64,000 nt of DNA. It comes from Gemmatimonadota bacterium (GTDB lineage: Bacteria; Gemmatimonadota; Gemmatimonadetes; Gemmatimonadales; GWC2-71-9). Below the pieces are notes generated by a model, which saw nothing but the letters and a program-made list of their open reading frames with translations, did not search any database and was not told where the DNA came from. The position numbers and the translations under genes are program-made. The DNA lies in NCBI GenBank assembly GCA_003221035.1, contig QHUB01000017.1, positions 1,298 through 65,297 of the forward strand. Reading direction: 5' to 3'. Below, one piece after another: positions 10,086-28,336 of the stretch; the stretch's first letter is position 1; the number at the start of each line of letters is the position of its first letter.

Positions 10086-11403
10086 GCAGCGGCCGCACCG
10101 GCACCTCGAGCTGGCGCAGCGCGGTCAGGTCGATCGCGAACGCATAGACGAGCTGGCTCACCACCCAGGCCCAGGCGATCGCGAGCAGACCGGCGCCGGC
10201 GGCGCGCGCGACGAAGAACGTGACAAACAGCAGCGTCAATGACACCAGCCCGAGCGTCGCCGCGCGCAAAGGACGGCCGGCCGCCAGTTGAAACGCGTAG
10301 GCGGTGGTGCCGTGGGCGTTGAAGCTCAGCGCGCCGATCAGAATCACGAACAACGTCGTGTACTCGGCGGCGCCGAGGCCGATCGCGCCCAGCACCGTCG
10401 GTCCAAGCAGCGCGCCCGCGATCGCGAGCACGCCGTACGCGATCCAGCTGAGCGCCAGCAGACGCGGCAGCAATCCCTGGAGCGCGAGACGCTCGCGCGT
10501 ACCCGCGAGCATGCGCACGAACTTGGGGAACAGCACGAGGCCGATCGTATTGGAGAAGAACCAGATCCGATTCACGAGATCGAAGGTGGCGCGATAGACG
10601 CCGAGTGATCGGATGCCGAAGTACGCGTTCACCAGCACCGCCGGCACGGCGATGATCGAGACCTGGACCAGCTGCGCGGCCGACATCGCCGACGATCCAG
10701 CGAGGAAGCGCAGGAAGGGTTCGCGCGCGAACCGGGGCCGCCAGGCGCCGGCGGGCAGGCCTCCCGTGACGCGGAGCGCGAGCGGGATATCCACGAGGCG
10801 GCGCGCGGTGATCGCGGCGGCCACAAGCTCCGGACGGGTCGTCAGGAGCACGCCCGCAAACATCAGCGAATAGCGGATGAGGCCCGACGCGAGGGTGAAT
10901 CGCGAGTAGCGGCCGAAACGCTCGGCGGCGGCGCAGGTGTTCTGCATCAGCAGCACCGGCACGCCGAGCACGAAGTCGATCACGGCGAACAGGGTGAGCC
11001 ACTGAACGGCCCGCCGGCTGCCGGCTCCAACGGGAAACAGATACATGGGCACGATGTGTATGAGAACAAGCAGGACGACGAGCAGCCCGACCGATAGCAG
11101 CAAGTACAAACCCCACGCGGTCTGTATCTGCTGCCGCCGCCAGGCTTCGGAATCCCCGAACACACTCTCCGGCCGTCCGGGGGTCGGGCCGTCCGGCCGT
11201 CCAGCCAGCAGCCGTTGCAGATTCGGCCCGATGCCCAGGTCCGTCAGTGCCACATACCCGGCCACAACGGTGTAAATGGAGAGGAGTCCGTAGCCCGCGG
11301 CGCCGAGCCGATGCACGGCGATCGGCACGAACGCGATTCCGAGCGCGCCGTTCACGAAGTTCACCGCCCACACGGCCGAGACGTTTTTCAGGAACACGCG
11401 CAT
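10021..11403 (-). CDS. Polysaccharide flippase (Wzx-like, MOP superfamily)
   Basis: About 460 aa, polytopic membrane protein starting MRVFLKNVSAVWAVNFVNGALGIAFVPIAVHRLGAAGYGLLSIY. The start ATG chosen at 11403 is internal to the track ORF. Confidence 0.75.
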   Translation of the reverse strand: MRVFLKNVSAVWAVNFVNGALGIAFVPIAVHRLGAAGYGLLSIYTVVAGYVALTDLGIGPNLQRLLAGRPDGPTPGRPESVFGDSEAWRRQQIQTAWGLYLLLSVGLLVVLLVLIHIVPMYLFPVGAGSRRAVQWLTLFAVIDFVLGVPVLLMQNTCAAAERFGRYSRFTLASGLIRYSLMFAGVLLTTRPELVAAAITARRLVDIPLALRVTGGLPAGAWRPRFAREPFLRFLAGSSAMSAAQLVQVSIIAVPAVLVNAYFGIRSLGVYRATFDLVNRIWFFSNTIGLVLFPKFVRMLAGTRERLALQGLLPRLLALSWIAYGVLAIAGALLGPTVLGAIGLGAAEYTTLFVILIGALSFNAHGTTAYAFQLAAGRPLRAATLGLVSLTLLFVTFFVARAAGAGLLAIAWAWVVSQLVYAFAIDLTALRQLEVPVRPLRDTGLRVAVVLAVALVVLARA

Positions 11404-12691
11404 GGAGAGTAGACTACCCCCGCCGGTCTGGGTGCGTGCCGTGATTTCGGCCTGGGCATTTCTCATCCTGGCCGCCGATCTGAAAATCACGGTGCATCCG
11501 GTCATTCACTGGCTGGTCACCGGGGCCGCGGTGACGGGCGCGCTGCCGTACCTGCTGAGACTGCGTGTGCACTGGCGTCGGGTCCTGCCCGGCCTCACGC
11601 CCGCCTGCCTGCTCGTGCTTGCCGTGCTGCTCGCCGGCCTCGGTAGCGACGCTCCGCTCTACGCGATCGCCGAGGCCGGCAAACTGGCGATGATCCTGAT
11701 CGCGGCGCGCGCGCTGTTCATCGCGGAGCCTGCGCTCGCGCACGCCGCCATGCGCGGCTTCATCGGGGCGATCGCCGTCAACGTGCTGTTCCTCTTCCTG
11801 GGCCTCTGGGGGCTGGCGGCGACCGCCAGCGAAATGGGCCCGCGCCGCTTCGGCACGCTGCTCAACTTCCCCGGCTCGCTCGCGCGACTGGGATTCCTCG
11901 CGCTGTGCTACGCCGCGTATATGGTGCTTGCCTGGAGGCAGCCGCTGCGGCATCTCGCGCTGCTCGGGGCGTGCGCCGCGCTCATTTATTACGACGGCTC
12001 CCGGACCGCGTGGCTCCTGCTTGCCCTCCTCGTCCCGTTCGTGCTGTTCATTCGCTTCACGGAGCGTCGCGGTCGTCCTTCGCGGCTGGGTCGCCTCGCC
12101 GCCGTCGGCGTCTCGCTCGGCGCCGTACTCGTAGTGATCGCCGGCTGGCGCTGGGTGCAGCGGCAGACCGAAGTGCCTTCCGGGAGCGGCGCGATCGCGC
12201 GGATCGGGCAGCTCGCCGTGAACGTGCGTGTCTATGGCGCCGCCGGTCTCGCGATCGCCGATGAACGGCGCGCGCGCATGCTCGAGATCGGCATGGACGC
12301 GTTCCGGCGCGCTCCATTCATCGGAACCGGCGTCGGAACGACGCAGGCCGACACGGATATCGGCCTCATGGTCGTGCACATGACGTATCTGCAAATCATC
12401 GGCGACCTGGGACTGCTCGGATTGTTTGCGTACCTCTGGCTCGTCCTGGGCTGGCTTCCGTTCCTGCCGCGCGCCTGGCGCTCGATTTCCCGACTCCCGA
12501 ACCCCGAATCCCGAGCCCCGTACTACAACGCCATCTTCCTGCTCGGGGCGTTCGCATTGTCGGGACTGTTCCATCCGCTCAGCACCGAATGGACCGAATG
12601 GATCATGTTCGTCGTGCCGTCGGCGCTGTTCTGGGAAATGAGCGCGTCATACAACGCCGAGACATCCGCGACCATCCTCTCGAGTCCGTAG
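11402..12691 (+). CDS. O-antigen ligase/polymerase-like membrane protein (Wzy_C-type)
   Basis: 429 aa, polytopic, with a ..YYDGSRTAWLLLALLVPFVLF.. segment typical of the O-antigen ligase domain. Contains a heptamer repeat array at 12486..12520. Confidence 0.7.
   Translation: MESRLPPPVWVRAVISAWAFLILAADLKITVHPVIHWLVTGAAVTGALPYLLRLRVHWRRVLPGLTPACLLVLAVLLAGLGSDAPLYAIAEAGKLAMILIAARALFIAEPALAHAAMRGFIGAIAVNVLFLFLGLWGLAATASEMGPRRFGTLLNFPGSLARLGFLALCYAAYMVLAWRQPLRHLALLGACAALIYYDGSRTAWLLLALLVPFVLFIRFTERRGRPSRLGRLAAVGVSLGAVLVVIAGWRWVQRQTEVPSGSGAIARIGQLAVNVRVYGAAGLAIADERRARMLEIGMDAFRRAPFIGTGVGTTQADTDIGLMVVHMTYLQIIGDLGLLGLFAYLWLVLGWLPFLPRAWRSISRLPNPESRAPYYNAIFLLGAFALSGLFHPLSTEWTEWIMFVVPSALFWEMSASYNAETSATILSSP
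12486..12520. repeat. Tandem heptamer array, 5 x NNNCCCG
   Basis: tttcccg actcccg aaccccg aatcccg agccccg, inside the ligase-like CDS (peptide ISRLPNPESRAPY). Confidence 0.75.
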
Positions 12692-19570: not shown

Positions 19571-22482
19571 TAGTTGAAGCCGAAGAAGAAGTCGACAAAG
19601 CGCTGCTTACTCGTGCTCGCCGGCAGATGATACCCGGGCACATCCACCGTGCCGAGGCGATATCCGGCGTCGAGGCGCAACACCAGCGGCGGGCCGATCG
19701 GCATACGCAAGCCCAGTCCGCTCGCGCCCAACACGTGACGCATCTCGGTGCTCGTGGTCCACGCGCGGCCATAATCGACGAACAACGCGGCCTGGATCCC
19801 CGGAAAACGCGCGGAGCCGAACGGGAACCCGACAGTGAGAAAGTCGAGAACCGGAAACCGGTACTCCGCATTCACCAGCCAGGCACGCGTGCCCGCGACG
19901 TACCCGTACTGGGGGTAGCCCCGGAGTCCCCACGACCCCCCGATGCTGATGTGCTGCGGCCGCTCGCCGCCGGACGTGTATCCTTCTACGCGCAACGCGA
20001 CGGCGCTGCGCTGCGATGTTCTGATGTACCGCCGCCAGTCCGCCGACGCGACCCACGAGTCGAATCGGCCGTGACTGAGATCCGACACGATGCCGGCCGT
20101 GATGTTGTAGCGCGTGCCATCGATCGGCCCCGTGGCGAGCCACAGCGTGTTGTCCTTGACGTACGACAGATTATTCGAGGCGAGCCAGCCAACGCGGTGG
20201 GGATTCGCGAGATCATCGGCGGTCAGGTCAAGCCGATCCGAGCGCTCGAACCGGTACTCGCCCACGAGCCGGCGGAAGCGATCGAGCGGATAACGCACCT
20301 GCGCCGTGACGCCGTACGACTCTTCCTGGTACAACGAATTGTGATCGCCTTCATAAAACAGACCGCGCTCCCTGAACGCCCCCACACCCCAATTGATGCG
20401 ACGCGATTGGTTCAAGTAGAACGCGGATCCGCTGACGTTGTCCAACAGGCTTCCCACGTCGGAGCTCTGGAACGAGGACACGGAAAGATAGAGCTGATGA
20501 TCGGACAACAGGTCGCTGAACACGACCATCGCGCCCTGCGCCGAGCCGACACCGGGCGCCACCGCGGCATCTCCGGCAGCGAAATCCACGCTGAGCCGTT
20601 TTTGGTAGGGCGCCGCAGCAGTGCTGGCATACCGTGAATGCGCGAGCTCGTCCCACGTCCAGGACGGTGCGGGTACGCTGTCCGTCGCGAGACTGACGAG
20701 CGTCTCGTTTCCCGTGTCGCGCAGCGGCGGCGCGAGATAGATGCTGAAGCTGAGATCCGCAAAGCCGCCGAACAACAGGCCACCGTGCGGACCGGAGACC
20801 CATTGAGGATCGAACGCCCCATTCATCGTCCGGGTCTCACGGCGTCCCGTGCCGGTCGAGTCGATCGAGTAAATCTGGAACGTGCCGTCGCGGTCGGAGG
20901 CAAAGTAGATTCGGTCCCCGGCTTCGCCCCCTCCGCTCCACCCGCTCCCCCCGCCCCCTCCGCTTCCTCCGAATCGCGGCGATTCGTCGTGCCAGTCGCC
21001 GTAGGTCAGATACCGAATCGCCCCGCTGGGCAGGTCGAGCGCAAAGAGGTTCCTGGCGCCGTTCTTTCCAAAAGGCGTGCGATCCGATGAAAAGACGACC
21101 GTGTGCCCGTCCGGGCTGACGCTCGGATCGAGGTCTTCGTAGCGATCGGAGGTCAACCGCTCGAGACGCCCCGCACCCAACGAATCACCGGGATCTGCGA
21201 TCCAGAGACGATAGAGGTCCGAATACCCGGACTCCGAGAGTCCGCTGAAGACGACGCTCTTGCCATCGGGCGCCCAGGCCGGCGAGAGCATCGAGACCAG
21301 CTCACTGAACTGGTAGCGCGCGATCACCTTGGCCTTTCGCAGATCCCACAAGAACAGCGCATCGCGCTGCGCGTTCTTGCTGCTGAACACGGCGATGCCG
21401 TGCGCGTTCACGTCCATCCGTGACTCGAAGAAGTGAAAGGATTCGAACTGCTCGCTGCGCTCTCCCTGCACCACCGAACGGCGACTCCGGTTCGCCAGAC
21501 TCTGCGCGTAGATCGTGGCATAGCCGTTCGCCGGCGAGAAGAAGAGGAAGGAGAGCGCCGAATCGCCCGGCAGCAGGTATGCGGTGGGCTTCACCGCCAG
21601 GTCGCTCAACTTGCGTGCCGTGAGCGCGAGCGGCGACTGGGCGACGACGGCCGGATAATAGTGCTGACGCATCCAGTACAGCCACTCCTCGGACAATTCC
21701 CCAATGGAGCGGCCGTATACGCCCGCCAGCGCCGCGTCGAAAGATTTGTACTTCCAGATCTCAGCGTACAGGTCGAGAATCCGCCATTCTCCGTAGCGCT
21801 CGGCCAGGAAGCGATGGATGCTGCCCCCGACGGGATATACCAGTCCGCCCGACGCGTAATACAGATCCGGGAGCGACGGCAGGTGTCCGTCGATCGTCAT
21901 GTCGCGCAAGACCATTTCGTCACGGCTGTCTTCGCCGGCGGAAAAGAATTCGGCCATTCCCTCGGTCCACCACAGCGGCATCCCCACCTGCCGGAAACGT
22001 GGATGGCGGCCGAACGTCTGCGAAACCATGCTCAGCTGGAAGACGTGCACCAGCTCGTGGCGAATCGTGTGCCGGAATTCGGCGTAGTTGCCGCGGAACG
22101 GCAGCGCGACGCGGCGCCGCAGGAACTCGGTCACGCCGAGCAGCCCTTCGGGCGGAATGAACGGCAGCACGTTCGTCTGCTCGAAAGCGTTGTGTGACGC
22201 ATACACGATCATCGGAAAGCGTTTCGTGACCGCGTGATTGAAGCGGCGGGAGAGCGAGTCGTAACTCTCTTCGGCATAGGTCAGCGCGACGCGCCCGAGA
22301 TCCTCTTCCTCTGGATAGTAGTAGAGATCGACGTGCTCACCATGGAGAACGCGCCAGTTGAAGCGGCGGTACTGAATCTTGTTCTGCCCGAAGTTGCCGT
22401 ATTGCGCGCGTAACGCCGGAACCAGGCCAACGCTCAAAACCACGGCACAGGCCAAGGCCTGTGCACAGCGCCTGGGAGTCAT
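19567..22482 (-). CDS. Omp85-family outer-membrane protein with N-terminal MA-type peptidase-like domain and TolB-like (PD40) beta-propeller repeats
   Basis: 971 aa with a signal peptide. HELVHVF (HExxH) near residue 140, repeated ..SPDG..VVFSS.. PD40-like blades, and a C-terminal Bac_surface_Ag signature (..LFVDYGRAW...GLGLRM...LRLDAGY...FFFGFNY). Confidence 0.85.
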   Translation of the reverse strand: MTPRRCAQALACAVVLSVGLVPALRAQYGNFGQNKIQYRRFNWRVLHGEHVDLYYYPEEEDLGRVALTYAEESYDSLSRRFNHAVTKRFPMIVYASHNAFEQTNVLPFIPPEGLLGVTEFLRRRVALPFRGNYAEFRHTIRHELVHVFQLSMVSQTFGRHPRFRQVGMPLWWTEGMAEFFSAGEDSRDEMVLRDMTIDGHLPSLPDLYYASGGLVYPVGGSIHRFLAERYGEWRILDLYAEIWKYKSFDAALAGVYGRSIGELSEEWLYWMRQHYYPAVVAQSPLALTARKLSDLAVKPTAYLLPGDSALSFLFFSPANGYATIYAQSLANRSRRSVVQGERSEQFESFHFFESRMDVNAHGIAVFSSKNAQRDALFLWDLRKAKVIARYQFSELVSMLSPAWAPDGKSVVFSGLSESGYSDLYRLWIADPGDSLGAGRLERLTSDRYEDLDPSVSPDGHTVVFSSDRTPFGKNGARNLFALDLPSGAIRYLTYGDWHDESPRFGGSGGGGGSGWSGGGEAGDRIYFASDRDGTFQIYSIDSTGTGRRETRTMNGAFDPQWVSGPHGGLLFGGFADLSFSIYLAPPLRDTGNETLVSLATDSVPAPSWTWDELAHSRYASTAAAPYQKRLSVDFAAGDAAVAPGVGSAQGAMVVFSDLLSDHQLYLSVSSFQSSDVGSLLDNVSGSAFYLNQSRRINWGVGAFRERGLFYEGDHNSLYQEESYGVTAQVRYPLDRFRRLVGEYRFERSDRLDLTADDLANPHRVGWLASNNLSYVKDNTLWLATGPIDGTRYNITAGIVSDLSHGRFDSWVASADWRRYIRTSQRSAVALRVEGYTSGGERPQHISIGGSWGLRGYPQYGYVAGTRAWLVNAEYRFPVLDFLTVGFPFGSARFPGIQAALFVDYGRAWTTSTEMRHVLGASGLGLRMPIGPPLVLRLDAGYRLGTVDVPGYHLPASTSKQRFVDFFFGFNY

Positions 22483-24569
22483 CGGTGGATGCTCCTGATG
22501 CGATCGCCCTGCCCGATCGCGTTCAATACAACGGTACCGCCCCCGCTTCCCCCGCCCCCGCCCACGACGCGGCCGAAGACCGTGTAGATGCCGTCCAGGT
22601 GGGGTTGCGCGGAATGCGCGATGAAATACTGGCTTCCGCCGGTATTGGGACCCGACAGCGCCATCCCTACGGTCCCCGCCTCGTAACGCACGGGGTTGAT
22701 CTCGTCCCGAATGGAGAATCCCGGTCCGCCCCAGCCGTCGCCGCGCGGATCGCCGTCCTGCACGACGAAGTTCGGAACGACCCGATGCCAGCGCGTCCCG
22801 TCGAAATAGCGCCGCGACACGAGGTCCAAAAACGCCGCGACCGTGAGCGGCGCCTCTGCGGGCAGCAGCTCGATGTCGAGCGCCCCGCGATCAGTTTCGA
22901 GTGTGACGTGCGGATTCGTTCCCACGAATGCCGGCGCGAGCCAGCGGCGCGCGACGTCGCGGTAATCGACAATGGTCTTGCCGGTCGCGATCGGCAGCGC
23001 CGGGCCCCAGGCGTCGCGCGTGTCGGGGAGTGTGTCGGCGGCGAGACGGCGCACGAGATAATCGTCCGGCCGCTTGGTCGCCGCGATGAACTTCGATGCC
23101 ACCTGCACGCGCCCATTCGCCGACGCCGCGGCGATGGCGCCGAGCGCGGACACGGCAGACAGACGGGCATCGGTGAACGGATCGCCCTCGGCCCTGGTGT
23201 ACGCGACGACCAGCCGATCGATGTCTTCGGGATTGGGCCGCCGCGCGAGCAGGTCAGCCGCGAGGCTGCGGACGGCCGGGTCCGCGTGGGTCAGCAGCGT
23301 GCGCGCGCGGGCCGGCAGTGCAGAGTCGGTCGGGGGGACAATGCGCTGCAACATTTGCAGCGCCTGCGCCACCACGCGACCATCGGGATCCGCGAGCTGC
23401 GCCTCCAACCGGTCGCGGGCGCGGGCGGCCCCGTAGGCTTCGGCGGCGACGCTGCGCCAGCGCCAATCGGCATCGCCCGCCGGCGCCGCGGCCGCCGCGA
23501 CTCCGGCGCCGCTGTCAGCCTGGGCCACGGCGATCAGCGCCTGGCGCCGCAACGCGAAGACGCTGCTGGTGAGACGCGCGCGCAGCGCTTCGAGCGCGCG
23601 CGAGCCGCCGATCACGCCGAGTGTCGTCTCTGCCTGAACCGAGACGCCGATGTCGCGATCGGCGACGAGCGGGACGACCGCGACGGTCAATCCGGAATCG
23701 CGGAAGGAGGCGACCGCCCGCAGCGCGTTGATGCGAATGTGCGCATCGCCGTCGGCGAGCAGACGGCGGAGACCGGTAATCGCGTTCTGCGGATCGAGCT
23801 TCGCGCTGTCCAGCAACGCCTTGTTGATGCCACGCGCGCCGACGATGCGCGTTTGTGGATCGGCATCGCTGAGCGCGCGGACGAGCGGCGTCGCGCCATC
23901 TTTGGCCCGCAGGCGCGCCAGGGAGTACAACGCGCGCCACCGTGTGTCGGCGACCGCCGCGTCGGTAAATCGGACCAGTTGCGCGAGCGGCGCACGAGCG
24001 CCCAGGCGCCACGCCTCGATCAGAGCGGCATTCACCACCTCGTTCGCGTTGCCGGGCGACGCCGCAGCCAGGACGTCGCCGAGCGCGCGCGCGCCATCGT
24101 CACCACCGATTTTCGCGATCGCGGTCACCGCTTCGACTTGTGGCGCGCGCGCTTGCGGTGCCGATGCCAGGATCACGTCGACCAGCGGCGGGATCGCGCG
24201 CGCGTCTTTGAGCAGGCCCAGCGCGAATGCCGCGGCCGCTTGTACCGCGGGGACGGTGTCATGCAGGACGGGAAGCAGCAGGTCGACGGCGGCGCCATCG
24301 CCGATCCGTCCCGCGGCGAGCGCGCCCTGACGGCGCACGTCGGGATCGGGATGACTCAGCGCTTCGCCCAGGGGTACCGGGTCGAAGCGACGGGCATCGG
24401 CAGCGCCGAGGACCGCCGCGAGCACACCCACGGTTGTCTCGTCGATTGGCGCGCGCTGCTGTGCGACGGCAGCGGCGGGCGCCGCTGCGATCAGAACAAG
24501 GAGACTATAGACGAACCGGGTCCGACGTGGGTTCGAGCAGCTCACACACGTGCTCCGGGATGCGCGCAA
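22479..24569 (-). CDS. Secreted HEAT-repeat protein fused to cyclophilin-type peptidyl-prolyl isomerase
   Basis: 696 aa. The N-terminal ~480 aa are HEAT-like repeats (..DPDVRRQGALAAGRIGD.., ..DADPQTR.., ..HADPAVRS..). The C-terminus carries HRVVPNFVVQDGDPRGDGWGGPG...GGSQYFI...YTVFGRVV. ATGA overlap with the downstream Omp85 gene. Confidence 0.85.
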   Translation of the reverse strand: MRASRSTCVSCSNPRRTRFVYSLLVLIAAAPAAAVAQQRAPIDETTVGVLAAVLGAADARRFDPVPLGEALSHPDPDVRRQGALAAGRIGDGAAVDLLLPVLHDTVPAVQAAAAFALGLLKDARAIPPLVDVILASAPQARAPQVEAVTAIAKIGGDDGARALGDVLAAASPGNANEVVNAALIEAWRLGARAPLAQLVRFTDAAVADTRWRALYSLARLRAKDGATPLVRALSDADPQTRIVGARGINKALLDSAKLDPQNAITGLRRLLADGDAHIRINALRAVASFRDSGLTVAVVPLVADRDIGVSVQAETTLGVIGGSRALEALRARLTSSVFALRRQALIAVAQADSGAGVAAAAAPAGDADWRWRSVAAEAYGAARARDRLEAQLADPDGRVVAQALQMLQRIVPPTDSALPARARTLLTHADPAVRSLAADLLARRPNPEDIDRLVVAYTRAEGDPFTDARLSAVSALGAIAAASANGRVQVASKFIAATKRPDDYLVRRLAADTLPDTRDAWGPALPIATGKTIVDYRDVARRWLAPAFVGTNPHVTLETDRGALDIELLPAEAPLTVAAFLDLVSRRYFDGTRWHRVVPNFVVQDGDPRGDGWGGPGFSIRDEINPVRYEAGTVGMALSGPNTGGSQYFIAHSAQPHLDGIYTVFGRVVGGGGGSGGGTVVLNAIGQGDRIRSIHR

Positions 24570-24873
24570 GAGTTTGTTCTGTGTTCAACGCGATCAACGA
24601 CGTTTCAGCCGTGGCGAGGAGCTCGCCGGTCTCGGCGCGCTCGATTGCATATCCGAAAATCACGCGGCGCGACGCCAGGTCCCGCACCCAACAACGGGTG
24701 CGAATCATATCATCATAGCGCGCGGGCTGCCGATACCGCACCTGCACGTTGGTGACGGTGAGATACGTCCCCTGTTGTTCCATGTCGCGATACGACATGC
24801 CGCGCTCGCGCAGATGCTCGGTGCGCGCCATATCCATCCAGATGAGATAGTTCGCGTGATAGACGAACCCCAT
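24505..24873 (-). CDS. Acyl-CoA thioesterase, YbgC/4HBT family (true start probably upstream, non-canonical)
   Basis: GFVYHANYLIWMDMARTEHL.. hotdog-fold motif. Coordinates are from the first ATG. The conserved ..RVNYSETD.. segment is encoded in frame just upstream (see finding). Confidence 0.8.
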   Translation of the reverse strand: MGFVYHANYLIWMDMARTEHLRERGMSYRDMEQQGTYLTVTNVQVRYRQPARYDDMIRTRCWVRDLASRRVIFGYAIERAETGELLATAETSLIALNTEQTLARIPEHVCELLEPTSDPVRL

Positions 24874-24937
24874 CTGATCGGTTTCGGAGTAGTTGACGCG
24901 GTGCAGGACCGCGCTGATCGACGGCGGGGAGTTGCGG

Positions 24938-27328
24938 TTACTCGCCGTACGGAATCCAGATGTTCTTCACTTCCGACGCATGGCGCAGGAACTCGCGGCC
25001 TTCACTCTGACCGGCGTCGAACCAGTCGCGATCACGACTGAAGGTCCACGTGCGCTTCATGTTCGCGGCCGACGCGAGCTCGACGGCTTTCACGCCGGCG
25101 GCCGTTCCGAAGTACCAGATCCCGTCCACGTCATCGTGCTCGGCGAGCACTTTGGCCAGTGCATCCCTGGCCCCGGTGATCACGTTGATGACGCCGTCGG
25201 GGACGTCGGAGGTCTCGAGCACCGTATAGAACTCGGCGGCGGGGATCGGATTGGTCTCGGACGGGATGACGATGACGGCGTTCCCAACCGCGATCGCCGG
25301 CGCGACCAGCGATACGAAGCCGAGGAGGGGCGCAGCGTCAGGAGCGGCGATGCCCAGTACGCCGACGGGTTCGTTCATGGCGAGCGTGACGCCGCGAATC
25401 GGCGTGTGATGGACCGCGCCATCCCACTTGTCGGCCCATCCGGCGTAGGTGAAGAGCCGCGCGATACTCGCGTCGACTTCCTCGCGTCCTACCCGGGCCG
25501 CGAATTCGGCCGCGCGCGTCGCGAGATTCTCGGCGATGAAGTAGAGGATCTGGGCGCGCATGTGACCGCTGCCCCGACCCCACGCGGCGGCGGCATGCGC
25601 CGCTTCGACGGCGTTGCGCACGTCCTTGCGGTTCCCCTCGGCGACTTCGCCGAGCACTCGGCCGTCGGCAGCAACGATTCTGCGAGTATAGCCTTGGTCG
25701 GGCCTGGCCTGCTTCCCTCCGACGAACAGTTTGTACGTGCGATCGATGGGAGGGATCTCTGATGTCGGAATGCGGATTGCGGAATGCGGAATCGACCCAT
25801 CGAGCTTCTCGCCGCCCACCTTGTCATTCCGCATTCCGAATTCCGCATTCCGAGTTTCGTACTCCGGCTTGAGATACTCCCACATCCCCTCGCGCCCACC
25901 CTCTCTCCCGAACCCGGACTCGCGGTATCCGCCGAATCCTGACGCCGCGTCGAACAGGTTGGTGGAGTTTATCCAGACCACGCCGGCCTTCAGTTTCGGC
26001 GCGACGTCGAGCGCGAGGTTGATGTTCTCCGACCACACGCTCGCCGCCAGCCCGTACGGTGTGTTGTTGGCCAGCTCGACGGCTTCCGTGGGCGTCCGGA
26101 ACGTCATACTGACGAGCACCGGCCCGAAGATCTCGACCTGCGCGATCGTCGCGGCGGGAGAGACCTCGGTGAACAGCGTGGGCGGGTAGAAATAGCCTTC
26201 GGTCGGGCACGCCCACGATGGCTGCCACATTTTCGCGCCCTCGACGACGCCCTGCTCGACGAGGCCGCGAATCCGCTCGAGCTGCACCGGCGCCACGATC
26301 GCGCCCATGTCCACGGCTTTGTCGAGCGGCGACCCGACGCGCAACTTCTCCATCCGCGCGCGGAGCTTGTGCGTCAGGCGATCCGCGACCCCCTCCTGCA
26401 CCAACAGTCGCGAGCCGGCGCAGCAGACCTGCCCCTGGTTGAACCAGATCGCGTCCACCACGCCCTCGACGACGCTGTCGAGATCGGCGTCCTCGAACAC
26501 GATGAAGGGACTCTTGCCGCCCAGCTCGAGCGTCAGCTTCTTGCCGCTGCCCGCCGTCGCCTTGCGAATGATGCGACCCACCTCGGTCGAGCCGGTGAAC
26601 GCGATCTTGTGCACGTCGGGGTGCTCGACCAGCACTTTGCCGGTCGCGCCGTCGCCGGTCACCACGTTGAACACGCCGGCGGGCAATCCGGCGGCCTGCG
26701 CGATCTCCGCAAAGCACAGGGCGGTCAGGGGCGTGAATTCGGCAGGCTTCAGGATCACGGTGTTTCCCGCGGCCAGCGCCGGTGCCACCTTCCAGGCCAC
26801 CATGAGCAGCGGGAAATTCCAGGGAATGATTTGGCCGATGACGCCGACGGGCACATAGCCGGGGAATTCGCTGTCGCGCAGCTGCGCCCACCCGGCGTGA
26901 TGATAGAAGTGCCGGGCGACCAGCGGGATATCGAGGTCGCGCGTCTCGCGAATCGGCTTGCCGTTATCGAGGCTCTCGAGCACGGCCAGGAGCCGCGAGT
27001 GCCGCTGCACCTCCCGAGCGAGCGCGTACAGGTAGCGCGCGCGCGCATGCGCCGGCAGTCCGGCCCAGCCCGGCGCGGCGGCGCTGGCGGCCGCGACCGC
27101 GGCGTCGACATCAGCCTTGCTTCCCTGCGCGACGCGCGCGAGCACGACCTTGGTGGCTGGGTTGATCGTCTCGAAGAACTGCCCTTCACTCGGCTGGGCC
27201 CAGCGGCCGTTGCTGAAGTGGCCGAAGCGTCCGTTGTCGTGCTGGCGGATCCACTCCAGCGCCGGTGCCTCGCTCTCTGGCGCCGGTCCATACTCCATCG
27301 TTTCGAACAGCTTGGCGACGGTGGCCAT
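24938..27328 (-). CDS. Tandem aldehyde dehydrogenase family protein (full ALDH domain plus second partial ALDH-like domain)
   Basis: 796 aa. The first ~500 aa carry FTGSTEVG, ELGGKSP and NQGQVCCAGSR (catalytic Cys). The last ~270 aa repeat the N-terminal ALDH pattern (YKLFVGGK..., ..NEPVGVLGIAAP..) without the Cys motif. The linker is encoded by the heptamer inverted repeat. Confidence 0.9.
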   Translation of the reverse strand: MATVAKLFETMEYGPAPESEAPALEWIRQHDNGRFGHFSNGRWAQPSEGQFFETINPATKVVLARVAQGSKADVDAAVAAASAAAPGWAGLPAHARARYLYALAREVQRHSRLLAVLESLDNGKPIRETRDLDIPLVARHFYHHAGWAQLRDSEFPGYVPVGVIGQIIPWNFPLLMVAWKVAPALAAGNTVILKPAEFTPLTALCFAEIAQAAGLPAGVFNVVTGDGATGKVLVEHPDVHKIAFTGSTEVGRIIRKATAGSGKKLTLELGGKSPFIVFEDADLDSVVEGVVDAIWFNQGQVCCAGSRLLVQEGVADRLTHKLRARMEKLRVGSPLDKAVDMGAIVAPVQLERIRGLVEQGVVEGAKMWQPSWACPTEGYFYPPTLFTEVSPAATIAQVEIFGPVLVSMTFRTPTEAVELANNTPYGLAASVWSENINLALDVAPKLKAGVVWINSTNLFDAASGFGGYRESGFGREGGREGMWEYLKPEYETRNAEFGMRNDKVGGEKLDGSIPHSAIRIPTSEIPPIDRTYKLFVGGKQARPDQGYTRRIVAADGRVLGEVAEGNRKDVRNAVEAAHAAAAWGRGSGHMRAQILYFIAENLATRAAEFAARVGREEVDASIARLFTYAGWADKWDGAVHHTPIRGVTLAMNEPVGVLGIAAPDAAPLLGFVSLVAPAIAVGNAVIVIPSETNPIPAAEFYTVLETSDVPDGVINVITGARDALAKVLAEHDDVDGIWYFGTAAGVKAVELASAANMKRTWTFSRDRDWFDAGQSEGREFLRHASEVKNIWIPYGE
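25766..25852. repeat. Inverted pair of 4 x 7-nt heptamer arrays (CGGAATG)4 ... (CATTCCG)4 with 31-nt spacer
   Basis: Left arm 25766..25793: cggaatg cggattg cggaatg cggaatc. Right arm 25825..25852: cattccg cattccg aattccg cattccg. Total 87 nt, in frame, inside the ALDH inter-domain linker. Confidence 0.85.
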
Positions 27329-28336
27329 CTACACCATGGGGTGACGGTGGGCGGCCGCGTAGCGCCCCGTCACGAAATGCTCGAGCTGGCGCTCGATGTC
27401 GGTCAAGAGTGCGCTCGCGCCCAGCCGGAACAGGGCCGGCCTTAGCCAGCGATCCCCCAGCTCTTCCTTCATGAGGATCAGCCAGTCGAGCGACTGCTTG
27501 GCGGTGCGAATGCCGCCCGCCGGTTTGAAGCCGACGGCGTGACCGGTGCGCAGCTCGTACTCTCGGATCATGCGCGTCATCACCACGCCGACGGGCAGGA
27601 CCGCGTTGACCGCCTCTTTGCCGGTGGACGTCTTGATGAAATCCGCCCCCGCCATCATGGCCACCATGCTCGCGCGCGCGACGTTCGTGAGCGTCGCCAG
27701 ATCGCCCGTGCCGAGGATCGCTTTCATGTGCGCGCGGCCGCACGCGTCGCGGAACGCGCGGACTTCGGCGTAGAGCGCGGGCCAGTCGCCCGTGAGGACG
27801 TGCGCGCGCGTGATCACGATGTCGATCTCCTGCGCGCCGGCGGCGACTGAGGCCTGCACCTCCTCGAGGCGTTGCGCGAATGGACTCAGCCCGGCGGGAA
27901 AGCCGGTCGAGACCGCGGCGACGGGAATGCCGGATCCCTCGAGTGCCGCGACTGCTGTGGGCACGAGCGCGTGGTACACGCACACCGCGCCGACCTTGAT
28001 GTCGAGATGGGCGACGCCGAGGGCGTCGATCAGGTCAGGGCGAAGTGGGCGCCGTGCCTTGGCGCACAGCCGCAAGACGTTGCCGGGCGTGTCGTCGCCC
28101 TGGAGCGTCGTCAGATCCATGCAGGTGATCGCCCGGAGCAGCCAGGCCGCCTGCCATTCCTTCTTTACTGTGCGGCGCGTGGGGATCGTGGCGGCGCGGC
28201 GCTCCACCGCGCTGCGATTCACCCGCAGGCTGCGGATGACGTCGAGATCGAGCGGCAGCCCCGCATTACGATCGTCCTCGATGGCGGGAGGAGGACGCAC
28301 CGCCGGGGAGCGGAGCCGATCGTGGAGAGCCTTCAT
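27329..28336 (-). CDS. deoC: Deoxyribose-phosphate aldolase (long, DERA-like form)
   Basis: 335 aa. ..CMDLTTLQGDDT.., ..VAAVSTGFPAG.., ..ADFIKTSTGKE.. (Schiff-base Lys region). Confidence 0.85.
   Translation of the reverse strand: MKALHDRLRSPAVRPPPAIEDDRNAGLPLDLDVIRSLRVNRSAVERRAATIPTRRTVKKEWQAAWLLRAITCMDLTTLQGDDTPGNVLRLCAKARRPLRPDLIDALGVAHLDIKVGAVCVYHALVPTAVAALEGSGIPVAAVSTGFPAGLSPFAQRLEEVQASVAAGAQEIDIVITRAHVLTGDWPALYAEVRAFRDACGRAHMKAILGTGDLATLTNVARASMVAMMAGADFIKTSTGKEAVNAVLPVGVVMTRMIREYELRTGHAVGFKPAGGIRTAKQSLDWLILMKEELGDRWLRPALFRLGASALLTDIERQLEHFVTGRYAAAHRHPMV

Follow-up and report, generated by a model that had tools for sequence, protein, structure and literature searches.

An in-frame heptanucleotide-repeat palindrome in the inter-domain linker of a two-domain aldehyde dehydrogenase of Gemmatimonadales

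Heptamers have been named the most abundant class of long simple sequence repeats in many bacterial genomes, and slippage with a 7-nt polymerase footprint was suggested for them (Mrazek 2007, as far as cited in PMC4679880). In Xanthomonas campestris, 186 (GGGAATC)n arrays were described, in which four units are preferred and of which 70 cases are convergent stem-loop pairs (Rehm et al. 2015, PMC4692102). Most of these arrays lie within 50 bp of gene ends or stop codons and 7-11% overlap open reading frames (ORFs), a share that is larger in Nostoc; for the Xanthomonas (GGGAATC)n and (GGGANTN)n repeats and the Nostoc GGGGAYT repeats an explanation by G-quadruplex formation was proposed (PMC4692102). 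Here we describe an inverted pair of heptamer arrays that is located in frame within the gene of a two-domain aldehyde dehydrogenase (ALDH) of a soil Gemmatimonadales bacterium, close homologues of which carry the name Gemmatimonadales. It was found in a window of 64 kb, by which we mean the whole stretch of 64,000 nucleotides of contig QHUB01000017.1 that was analyzed. Inverted heptamer pairs of the Xanthomonas type are the closest described kind, and the ALDH palindrome is a variant of this known, yet unexplained, class of bacterial heptanucleotide repeats.

The short tandemly repeated repetitive (STRR) sequences of cyanobacteria, attributed to Mazel et al. in 1990, are reportedly tandem heptamer repeats as well. 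Arrays of the heptamer TAACTGA are known from Beggiatoaceae, Cyanobacteria and Bacteroidetes, where they are intergenic and of unexplained origin (MacGregor 2015, PMC4679880). Both share with the ALDH palindrome the tandem heptanucleotide array, theirs being dispersed in intergenic DNA; unlike the ALDH palindrome, they are nearly all direct (169 direct sets versus one inverted in Beggiatoa), lie upstream of starts and use a single unit per genome. Two further kinds of palindromes have to be considered. Repetitive extragenic palindromic (REP) sequences are single, imperfect palindromes of 20-40 nt with a GTAG or CGTC head, which are present in more than 100 near-identical copies, usually after genes, and are thought to stabilise mRNA 3' ends (PMC2817692, PMC3733652). 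The Rickettsia palindromic elements (RPEs) are, in the account that PMC10969869 gives of Ogata et al. (2000), families of related sequences, about 100-150 bp in length, that encode a conserved peptide, vary in presence or absence among orthologues and have many copies per genome.

The ALDH gene is encoded on the minus strand (24938..27328, 796 aa; Pfam Aldedh, E = 1e-194). It comprises a complete N-terminal ALDH domain (aa 1-487, 25868..27328, minus strand; PF00171 at aa 43-487, profile positions 1-457 of 461), a linker (aa 488-527, PEYETRNAEFGMRNDKVGGEKLDGSIPHSAIRIPTSEIPP, 25748..25867, minus strand) that is hypervariable among orthologues in alignment A1, and a C-terminal ALDH-like half-domain (aa 528-796, 24938..25747, minus strand), whose 269 aa are equivalent to the first half of the ALDH fold only (profile positions 11-232 of 461). 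The heptamer element is placed exactly between the two ALDH domains, where the original prediction had put it, and makes up the core of the linker. Using an inverted-repeat search, two arms of 28 nt each were detected (25765-25792 and 25826-25853) that are 93% complementary, lie 33 nt apart and pair at 26 of 28 positions, and this palindrome ranks first among the short-range inverted repeats of the window. Tandem Repeats Finder (TRF) reported period-7 arrays at 25766-25792 (3.9 copies, CGGAATG) and at 25825-25852 (4.0 copies, CATTCCG) with 90% matches. On the mRNA, the 5' arm (25826..25853, minus strand) is G-rich and consists of the four heptamers TCGGAATG CGGAATT CGGAATG CGGAAT, encoding RNAEFGMRN, the hairpin loop (25793..25825, minus strand, 33 nt) encodes DKVGGEKLDGS and contains a small 5-bp inner helix, and the 3' arm (25765..25792, minus strand) is C-rich and consists of the four heptamers ATTCCGC ATTCCGC AATCCGC ATTCCGA, encoding IPHSAIRIP. 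Both searches bear out the four heptamers facing four others in a stem of about 28 bp that had been predicted; the spacer between the arrays is present as well, its length being 32-33 nt, according to where one sets the limits of the arms, and not 31 nt. The 87 nt from 25766 to 25852 match codons R493-P521 of the ORF, i.e. 29 codons in frame with the predicted translation, and the ORF is uninterrupted across the element, which is also true for 77 of 78 orthologous linkers.

The mRNA-sense sequence 25750-25870 was folded and the stable hairpin suspected before was obtained, with a minimum free energy of -59.1 kcal/mol compared to -37.4 +/- 3.6 kcal/mol for 200 dinucleotide shuffles (z = -6.05), none of which was as stable as the real sequence. 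The 13-mer CGGAATGCGGAAT (up to two mismatches) has eight occurrences in the window versus 2.2 expected, six of them within the element, and no second copy of the palindrome's unit array was found in the 64 kb. Like the Xanthomonas and Nostoc repeats, the element has a 7-nt unit, about four units per array and convergent stem-loop pairs, and its unit GGAATGC resembles GGGAATC; as in Xanthomonas, pairs are also present directly after stop codons in Gemmatimonadota. Unlike the repeats of these two genera, the ALDH pair lies wholly in frame in a conserved gene and is inherited at one site across a bacterial order, and its units vary by lineage and by locus, whereas there one genome-wide consensus exists. 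The G-quadruplex explanation is not applicable here, since the CGGAATG unit holds runs of GG only and lacks the tracts of at least three G needed for G-quadruplex potential.

The original prediction had itself considered that the repeat might be an assembly artefact. Contigs of soil-metagenome runs were compared with the window. Contigs of two runs (X2 and X3) end within the element, as short-read assemblers do at repeats. In two other, independent runs (X1 and X5), however, single contigs span it (25556-26024 and 25625-26029) with zero differences, so that the sequence is reproduced exactly, and this architecture recurs at the corresponding position in dozens of independent metagenome-assembled genomes (MAGs) and contigs of metagenomes. 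Since the spanning contigs are identical in independent runs, the element is not an artefact of assembly, an explanation to which we assign practically no weight. The assembler word (k-mer) depth at 25751-25858 was 40-1100 in the arms and 7-12 in the flanks (about 10-100 times; runs X1, X2, X3 and X5), which indicates that the heptamer words are shared by many other sites in these soil communities.

To follow the linker among orthologues, the best 120 protein matches, which are 782-808 aa long and 87-100% identical, were inspected, and the ALDH gene was taken from 80 species-representative Gemmatimonadota genomes (65-91% protein identity). Two invariant anchors served to delimit the linker DNA; this succeeded in 77 of the 80 genomes and, together with the linker of the window, gave 78 linkers. 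In alignment A1 (32 sequences) identity averages about 91% in the flanks, and no consensus at all emerges from the columns of the linker. Seven was the best period in all 35 linkers of the window's clade, and their median fold z was -5.2 (25 of the 35 at z <= -4), compared to -0.9 for length-matched coding segments taken from these genes as controls. By strict criteria, 36 linkers are heptamer palindromes, and these use 25 distinct units; the consensus unit of the 5' arm is the reverse complement of that of the 3' arm in 25 of the 36 and is one base off in 10. GGAATGC is the unit of the window and its nearest relatives, and elsewhere the units are, for example, GGAACGC, GGATTGC, GGGGAGT, GGGAGAT, GGAGCCN, ACGGGAA, GGGGAAG, GGGCCTG, GGGGGAC, GCGGGAT, GAGGTCA and GGGACTC. 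Along the sense strand, the G-rich arm precedes the C-rich one in 37 of the 38 heptamer palindromes of orthologues. Units that would be capable of forming G-quadruplexes do exist among the orthologues (GGGGAAG, GGGGGAC, GGGCCTG), although G-tracts are often absent; as some units thus qualify and that of the window, with GG only, does not, G-quadruplex potential is not the conserved property. In the deep-branching Gemmatimonadota L067, L075 and L078, the same linker position is occupied by inverted arrays with an 8-nt unit (GGGAAGGC / GGAAGGTC), the 5' octamer array of L067 having grown to about 15 units in a linker of 70 aa. Throughout the Gemmatimonadales clade of the window, the position of the element, its orientation (G-rich arm leading) and its build as a heptamer palindrome are inherited, the two arms always matching each other, whereas the repeat unit, and hence the peptide, does not follow this pattern of inheritance. 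These data show that it is the palindromic 7-nt architecture of the DNA that has been conserved, rather than sequence, peptide or G-quadruplex potential. The original prediction had set its repeat against a conserved, non-repetitive linker of the same length in orthologues; the lengths are indeed similar, but the linkers of the clade are themselves heptamer palindromes and differ in sequence.

To distinguish between constraint on the DNA and on the peptide, the family with the GGAATGC unit was analyzed, which comprises 13 ungapped sequences, eight of them from extra loci, with a 28-pair stem taken from one member. In this family 87.4% of the stem cells are paired. Double-sided changes affected six pairs (12 cells), notably from G-C to A-U at two positions, a number reached in 0 of 500 shuffles, although these counts are inflated by relatedness and the structure derives from a single member. 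The arms diverge by 0.151 per site, with 0.148 at third and 0.152 at first and second codon positions, whereas the divergence of the flanking coding sequence is 0.407 at third and 0.084 at first and second positions, and the loop is codon-like as well (0.307 and 0.189, respectively). In this unit family, the arms hence change 2.7 times more slowly than the flanking synonymous sites. Being slow and free of a codon-position effect, the arms are constrained at the level of nucleotides and not of the peptide. It is therefore highly improbable that selection acted on the peptide, favouring a low-complexity linker rich in Gly, Arg and Glu and then in Pro and Ser, with the DNA palindrome as a by-product. 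Such selection would agree with the linker length, which is held at 34-51 aa in the clade of the window, and with a composition typical of disordered spacers. However, apart from the missing codon-position effect in the arms, the peptide is not conserved between unit families, and neither the reverse-complement second half nor a period of 7 nt out of phase with the codons would be explained. For the protein the element is simply a low-complexity spacer of about 40 residues. Its composition is like that of typical disordered spacers; disorder of the linker is inferred from this composition and from non-conservation only, as AlphaFold2 on the 32-sequence alignment A1 gave an unusable model (mean pLDDT, the predicted local distance difference test score, of 32).

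The relation between arm symmetry and reading frame can be seen in the linker of L035 (MAG QHUY01000044.1, 11457-11560), which has CTAG in both arms and thereby an in-frame TAG in the 5' arm: GGGACTAGGG is mirrored as CCCCTAGCCCC in the 3' arm, and an in-frame GTG follows 9 nt on. The gene would be split at the linker; genuine fission and an error in the consensus are both conceivable. In L035, arm symmetry is kept with the ORF paying the price. Units without stop codons in all three frames and both orientations were found in 37 of 38 linkers, compared to 6 of 11 intergenic palindromes of the phylum and about 65% expected at the base composition, showing that the units that persist in linkers are those that are stop-free in every frame in both orientations. 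Length differences obey the frame too. The P0042 group lacks exactly TRNAEFG (789 versus 796 aa, an indel of 21 nt), and L021 has 7 aa more than L015 within the 3' arm; such seven-residue differences are length changes in whole multiples of three units.

Next, it was asked whether the hairpin has been selected for a role in the mRNA, where it might make ribosomes pause between the domains, as the original prediction had considered, in aid of ALDH folding, act as an internal barrier to 3' exonucleases or form an RNase III site that sets the full-length message. In favour of this, the RNA is predicted to form a highly stable stem (-59 kcal/mol, z = -6), the structure is kept across at least 25 unit changes, pairing shows double-sided changes, the constraint on the arms is independent of codon position, and one metatranscriptome contig spans the element, which appears to be transcribed as a single piece. 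The mismatches speak against it: in 41 stems, 12 G.U and 34 A.C mismatches were counted on the sense strand (p = 0.002), which is the direction opposite to that expected under selection on the sense RNA. Moreover, in several Gemmatimonadaceae clades (L044, L046, L050-L052 and others) the linker is equally long and non-repetitive, with a fold z of about 0, from which we conclude that the enzyme does not need the hairpin. Palindromes of this kind are also common in non-coding DNA. Scanning 24700-27500 for intrinsic terminators revealed no terminator-like site and no U-tract, the 3' arm being followed by CAUCAGAGAUCC. Programmed frameshifting was considered and dropped, as no slippery heptamer precedes the stem. 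Rfam 15 returned no family at the gathering threshold, the best score of 25 bits (versus 168) being a generic hairpin match to a miRNA precursor model. A separate function of the hairpin in the mRNA is possible and is not supported by the evidence obtained here; we regard selection for such a role as unlikely.

To analyze where else such repeats occur, period-7 arrays with an inverted partner were scanned in 1.34 Mb of Gemmatimonadota sequence around ALDH loci. This gave 38 inverted pairs, 27 of which are the ALDH linker and 11 lie elsewhere. In four Gemmatimonadaceae a palindrome is found immediately after the ALDH stop codon (L043:7114-7175, L050:11042-11145, L058:12383-12440 and L068:10839-10920), with the differing units GCAGAAT, GTAGGTG, GAGCTCA and CGGTGAA, and the ALDH linkers of these four are weakly or not palindromic. 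Within one genome (L050, L058), every heptamer palindrome has a unit of its own. In L019 (20373-20640), inverted TGATCAA/TTGATCA arrays about 170 nt apart flank a tRNA-Pro(TGG) gene (20447-20520). A CGGAATG palindrome adjoining an apparent tRNA gene was also seen at the metagenome locus L086. The window itself contains one other heptamer array, TCCCGAC TCCCGAA CCCCGAA TCCCGAG on the plus strand (12480-12520), which is single and has no inverted partner; it is in frame, encodes ISRLPNPESRAP and lies just past the Wzy_C (O-antigen ligase) domain in a membrane protein of 429 aa (ORF 11402..12691).

In addition, metagenome contigs were scanned for an exact pattern of three CGGAATK units, which yielded at least 120 stretches; 80 of these loci were inspected. 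The contigs have a GC content of 42-73%, and among the inspected loci not one was this ALDH. Most arrays are situated right after stop codons or before starts, an inverted ATTCCG array lies no more than 160 nt away in 19 of the 80, and for 34 of 67 none of the six frames is open across the array. In the few cases where such arrays are in frame in other proteins, they always fall in linkers or loops. The full CGGAATG/CATTCCG palindrome in frame was found at L134:1890-1975 (Ga0209378_1035203, GC 0.73) in a GlcF-like iron-sulfur protein, between the Fer4 dicluster and CCG domains, where its peptide VRNAEFGMRNRSSRVNSAFRTPHSAF (VRNAEFGMRN...SAFRTPHSAF) is almost that of the ALDH linker. L134 is an independent second case of a heptamer palindrome acting as an inter-domain linker. 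Arrays lacking the inverted partner are in frame in a HutI-like protein between composite and amidohydrolase domains (L115:503-526) and in a glycosyltransferase between an N-terminal helix and the GT2 domain (L142:2680-2750), and at L150:12790-12905 a CGGAATG array of about 13 units is in frame in a loop of a PMT_2 membrane glycosyltransferase.

The occurrence of heptamer palindromes at many other sites, in related genomes and in metagenomes, could mean that the linker received a mobile REP- or MITE-like element (miniature inverted-repeat transposable element), or members of such a family, by repeated and independent insertion. The uncoupling of the unit from the phylogeny of the flanks would fit as well, and in-frame palindromic insertions are known from the Rickettsia RPE (PMC10969869). 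As far as the RPEs are described there, the ALDH element is like them in being a hairpin-forming palindrome that is translated within an enzyme at a site tolerated by the fold, and is unlike them in having no empty site, no conserved sequence, no repeat-free core and no second copy in the 64-kb window. From REP sequences and bacterial interspersed mosaic elements (BIMEs) it differs in that its arms are tandem heptamers that start with TCGGAATG and end with CATTCCGA, in the absence of a GTAG or CGTC head and in being unique in the 64 kb. When features of a MITE were looked for, no direct repeat, and thus no target-site duplication, was found flanking the arms of the window element. An indel among orthologues, for which the original prediction had proposed to look, was not observed: a linker of 34-75 aa is present at all 78 orthologous sites, and none of the 78 is empty. 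Distant fused homologues have equally long, non-repetitive junctions, position and orientation are constant (37 of 38), and different units for each palindrome within one genome (L050, L058) are unlike a transposing family. Insertion of a mobile element is therefore considered clearly improbable. What stands of a domesticated or tolerated REP/MITE-like palindrome is thus the tolerated in-frame linker, made of a kind of repeat that is mostly intergenic elsewhere, and not the mobile, multi-copy sequence family.

The original prediction had also regarded the element as a possible junction of two formerly separate ALDH genes, and this is supported by a split locus. Relatives of the C-terminal domain are 274-294 aa long when free-standing and 690-830 aa when fused, and at the split locus L211/L212, recovered from two samples, deoC, an ALDH of 497 aa and a C-terminal domain homologue of 277 aa each have a gene of their own within the same neighbourhood. 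P0126, initially taken as a free-standing C-terminal domain (start 'MIDRT'), was discarded since its contig is riddled with frameshifts, and P0225 was used instead. As split versions of the gene exist, the linker marks a junction of fusion (or fission), and unconstrained stretches of this kind can give repeat arrays a foothold. The source of the palindrome may be an intergenic one, of the sort that follows the ALDH stop codon in Gemmatimonadaceae; alternatively, the palindrome may have formed later, within the linker. Because the junctions of distant non-repetitive homologues have a similar length, the takeover of an existing linker is favoured over a simple insertion.

Subsequently, the distribution of the units among lineages was examined. 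The units are scattered over the tree of the flanking protein sequence, and sharing an identical or nearly identical unit does not go along with greater closeness at the flanking third positions (0.575 for such pairs, 0.566 for the others). L013 (unit GAACGCG) and L015 (unit GGGCCTC) have unrelated cassettes between flanks that are 96% and 95% identical. In segments of 60 nt, the two differ at 0-4 positions upstream and at up to 7 downstream, and at 11 in the segment abutting the linker, for which the Poisson probability is about 4e-7 at the rate of the other upstream segments. The cassettes of L013 and L015, loop included, each resemble cassettes of more distant lineages. We read this as a probable exchange of whole cassettes by homologous recombination via the conserved flanks. 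Composite arrays in which one unit grades into another were seen in L098, L138 and L156 (for example GAATGAC x3, GAATGCG x3, CAGAATG), and the outer array of L098 has an inverted partner of its own, which suggests that units mutate and spread within arrays.

Taken together, the element is probably an in-frame bacterial heptanucleotide-repeat palindrome in a permissive linker at a fusion junction, where it would be shaped by repeat dynamics and a nucleotide-level force, by a filter of the reading frame and by recombination. According to this proposal, arrays would change by replication slippage in whole units, and only those outcomes that preserve the frame, such as indels of three units (21 nt, 7 aa), would survive. 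The arms may be kept alike at the DNA level by hairpin-templated correction, i.e. template switching at quasipalindromes, or alternatively by selection on a DNA or antisense structure. Homologous recombination in the highly conserved flanks would carry whole cassettes from one lineage to another. Quasipalindrome correction by template switching, a subject of Ripley and of the Lovett laboratory, is said to be a replication error by which, in an imperfect inverted repeat, one arm is copied onto the other; it is reportedly known as a mutational hotspot from reporters in E. coli and not as a means of long-term array maintenance. Such copying might match the two arms of the ALDH element irrespective of the bases involved, and the CTAG found mirrored in L035 would be in line with it.

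Several points weigh against this interpretation. The process that matches the arms is a proposed one, and structure selection and templated correction predict the same pattern. The 13-member family was chosen in part by linker similarity, by which the arm divergence is biased low, the codon-position result being less affected. The case for recombination depends mainly on one very close pair of MAGs, for which chimeric MAG contigs would be an alternative. Gradual concerted evolution between the unit families, which may occur, does not stand out in a network of 27 units joined by single-base steps: it has 25 edges and a largest component of 19, which is not above composition-matched random units (p of about 0.1). 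Finally, the survey of the source genome covers the 64 kb of the window, with the palindrome pair and one single array. A further explanation, which we rate as rather unlikely, is a dedicated cellular process that makes heptamer palindromes or keeps them symmetrical at many loci in diverse soil bacteria, be it hairpin-templated synthesis or correction or a protein recognising cruciforms or antisense structures; in a weaker form, the palindrome would be a required co-translational or RNA-processing signal between the domains. If such a process existed, the ALDH linker would be a site at which about 30 codons have been rewritten repeatedly through the whole history of the order with an essential frame kept open.

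The puzzles of heptamer repeats are why the period is seven, why they form inverted pairs and what their role is, and the ALDH locus is suited to address them. It provides a natural experiment in which one orthologous site is available from dozens of species, frame-breaks are recorded as lethal by the reading frame and the conserved flanks align exactly, which makes it a good system for learning how heptamer repeats are made and kept. It further illustrates that part of a protein can be specified by DNA whose sequence is set by the dynamics of repeats and not by the protein, which bears on the rise of inter-domain linkers and low-complexity regions after gene fusion and calls for caution in annotation, alignment and dN/dS (nonsynonymous to synonymous substitution rate) analyses of such regions.

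In the window, the ALDH gene follows directly after deoC (27329..28336) and precedes a 4HBT thioesterase gene. Downstream of the latter, a minus-strand ORF of 696 aa (22479-24569) was noticed which, judged by eye, encodes HEAT-like repeats and a C-terminal peptidyl-prolyl isomerase of the cyclophilin type.

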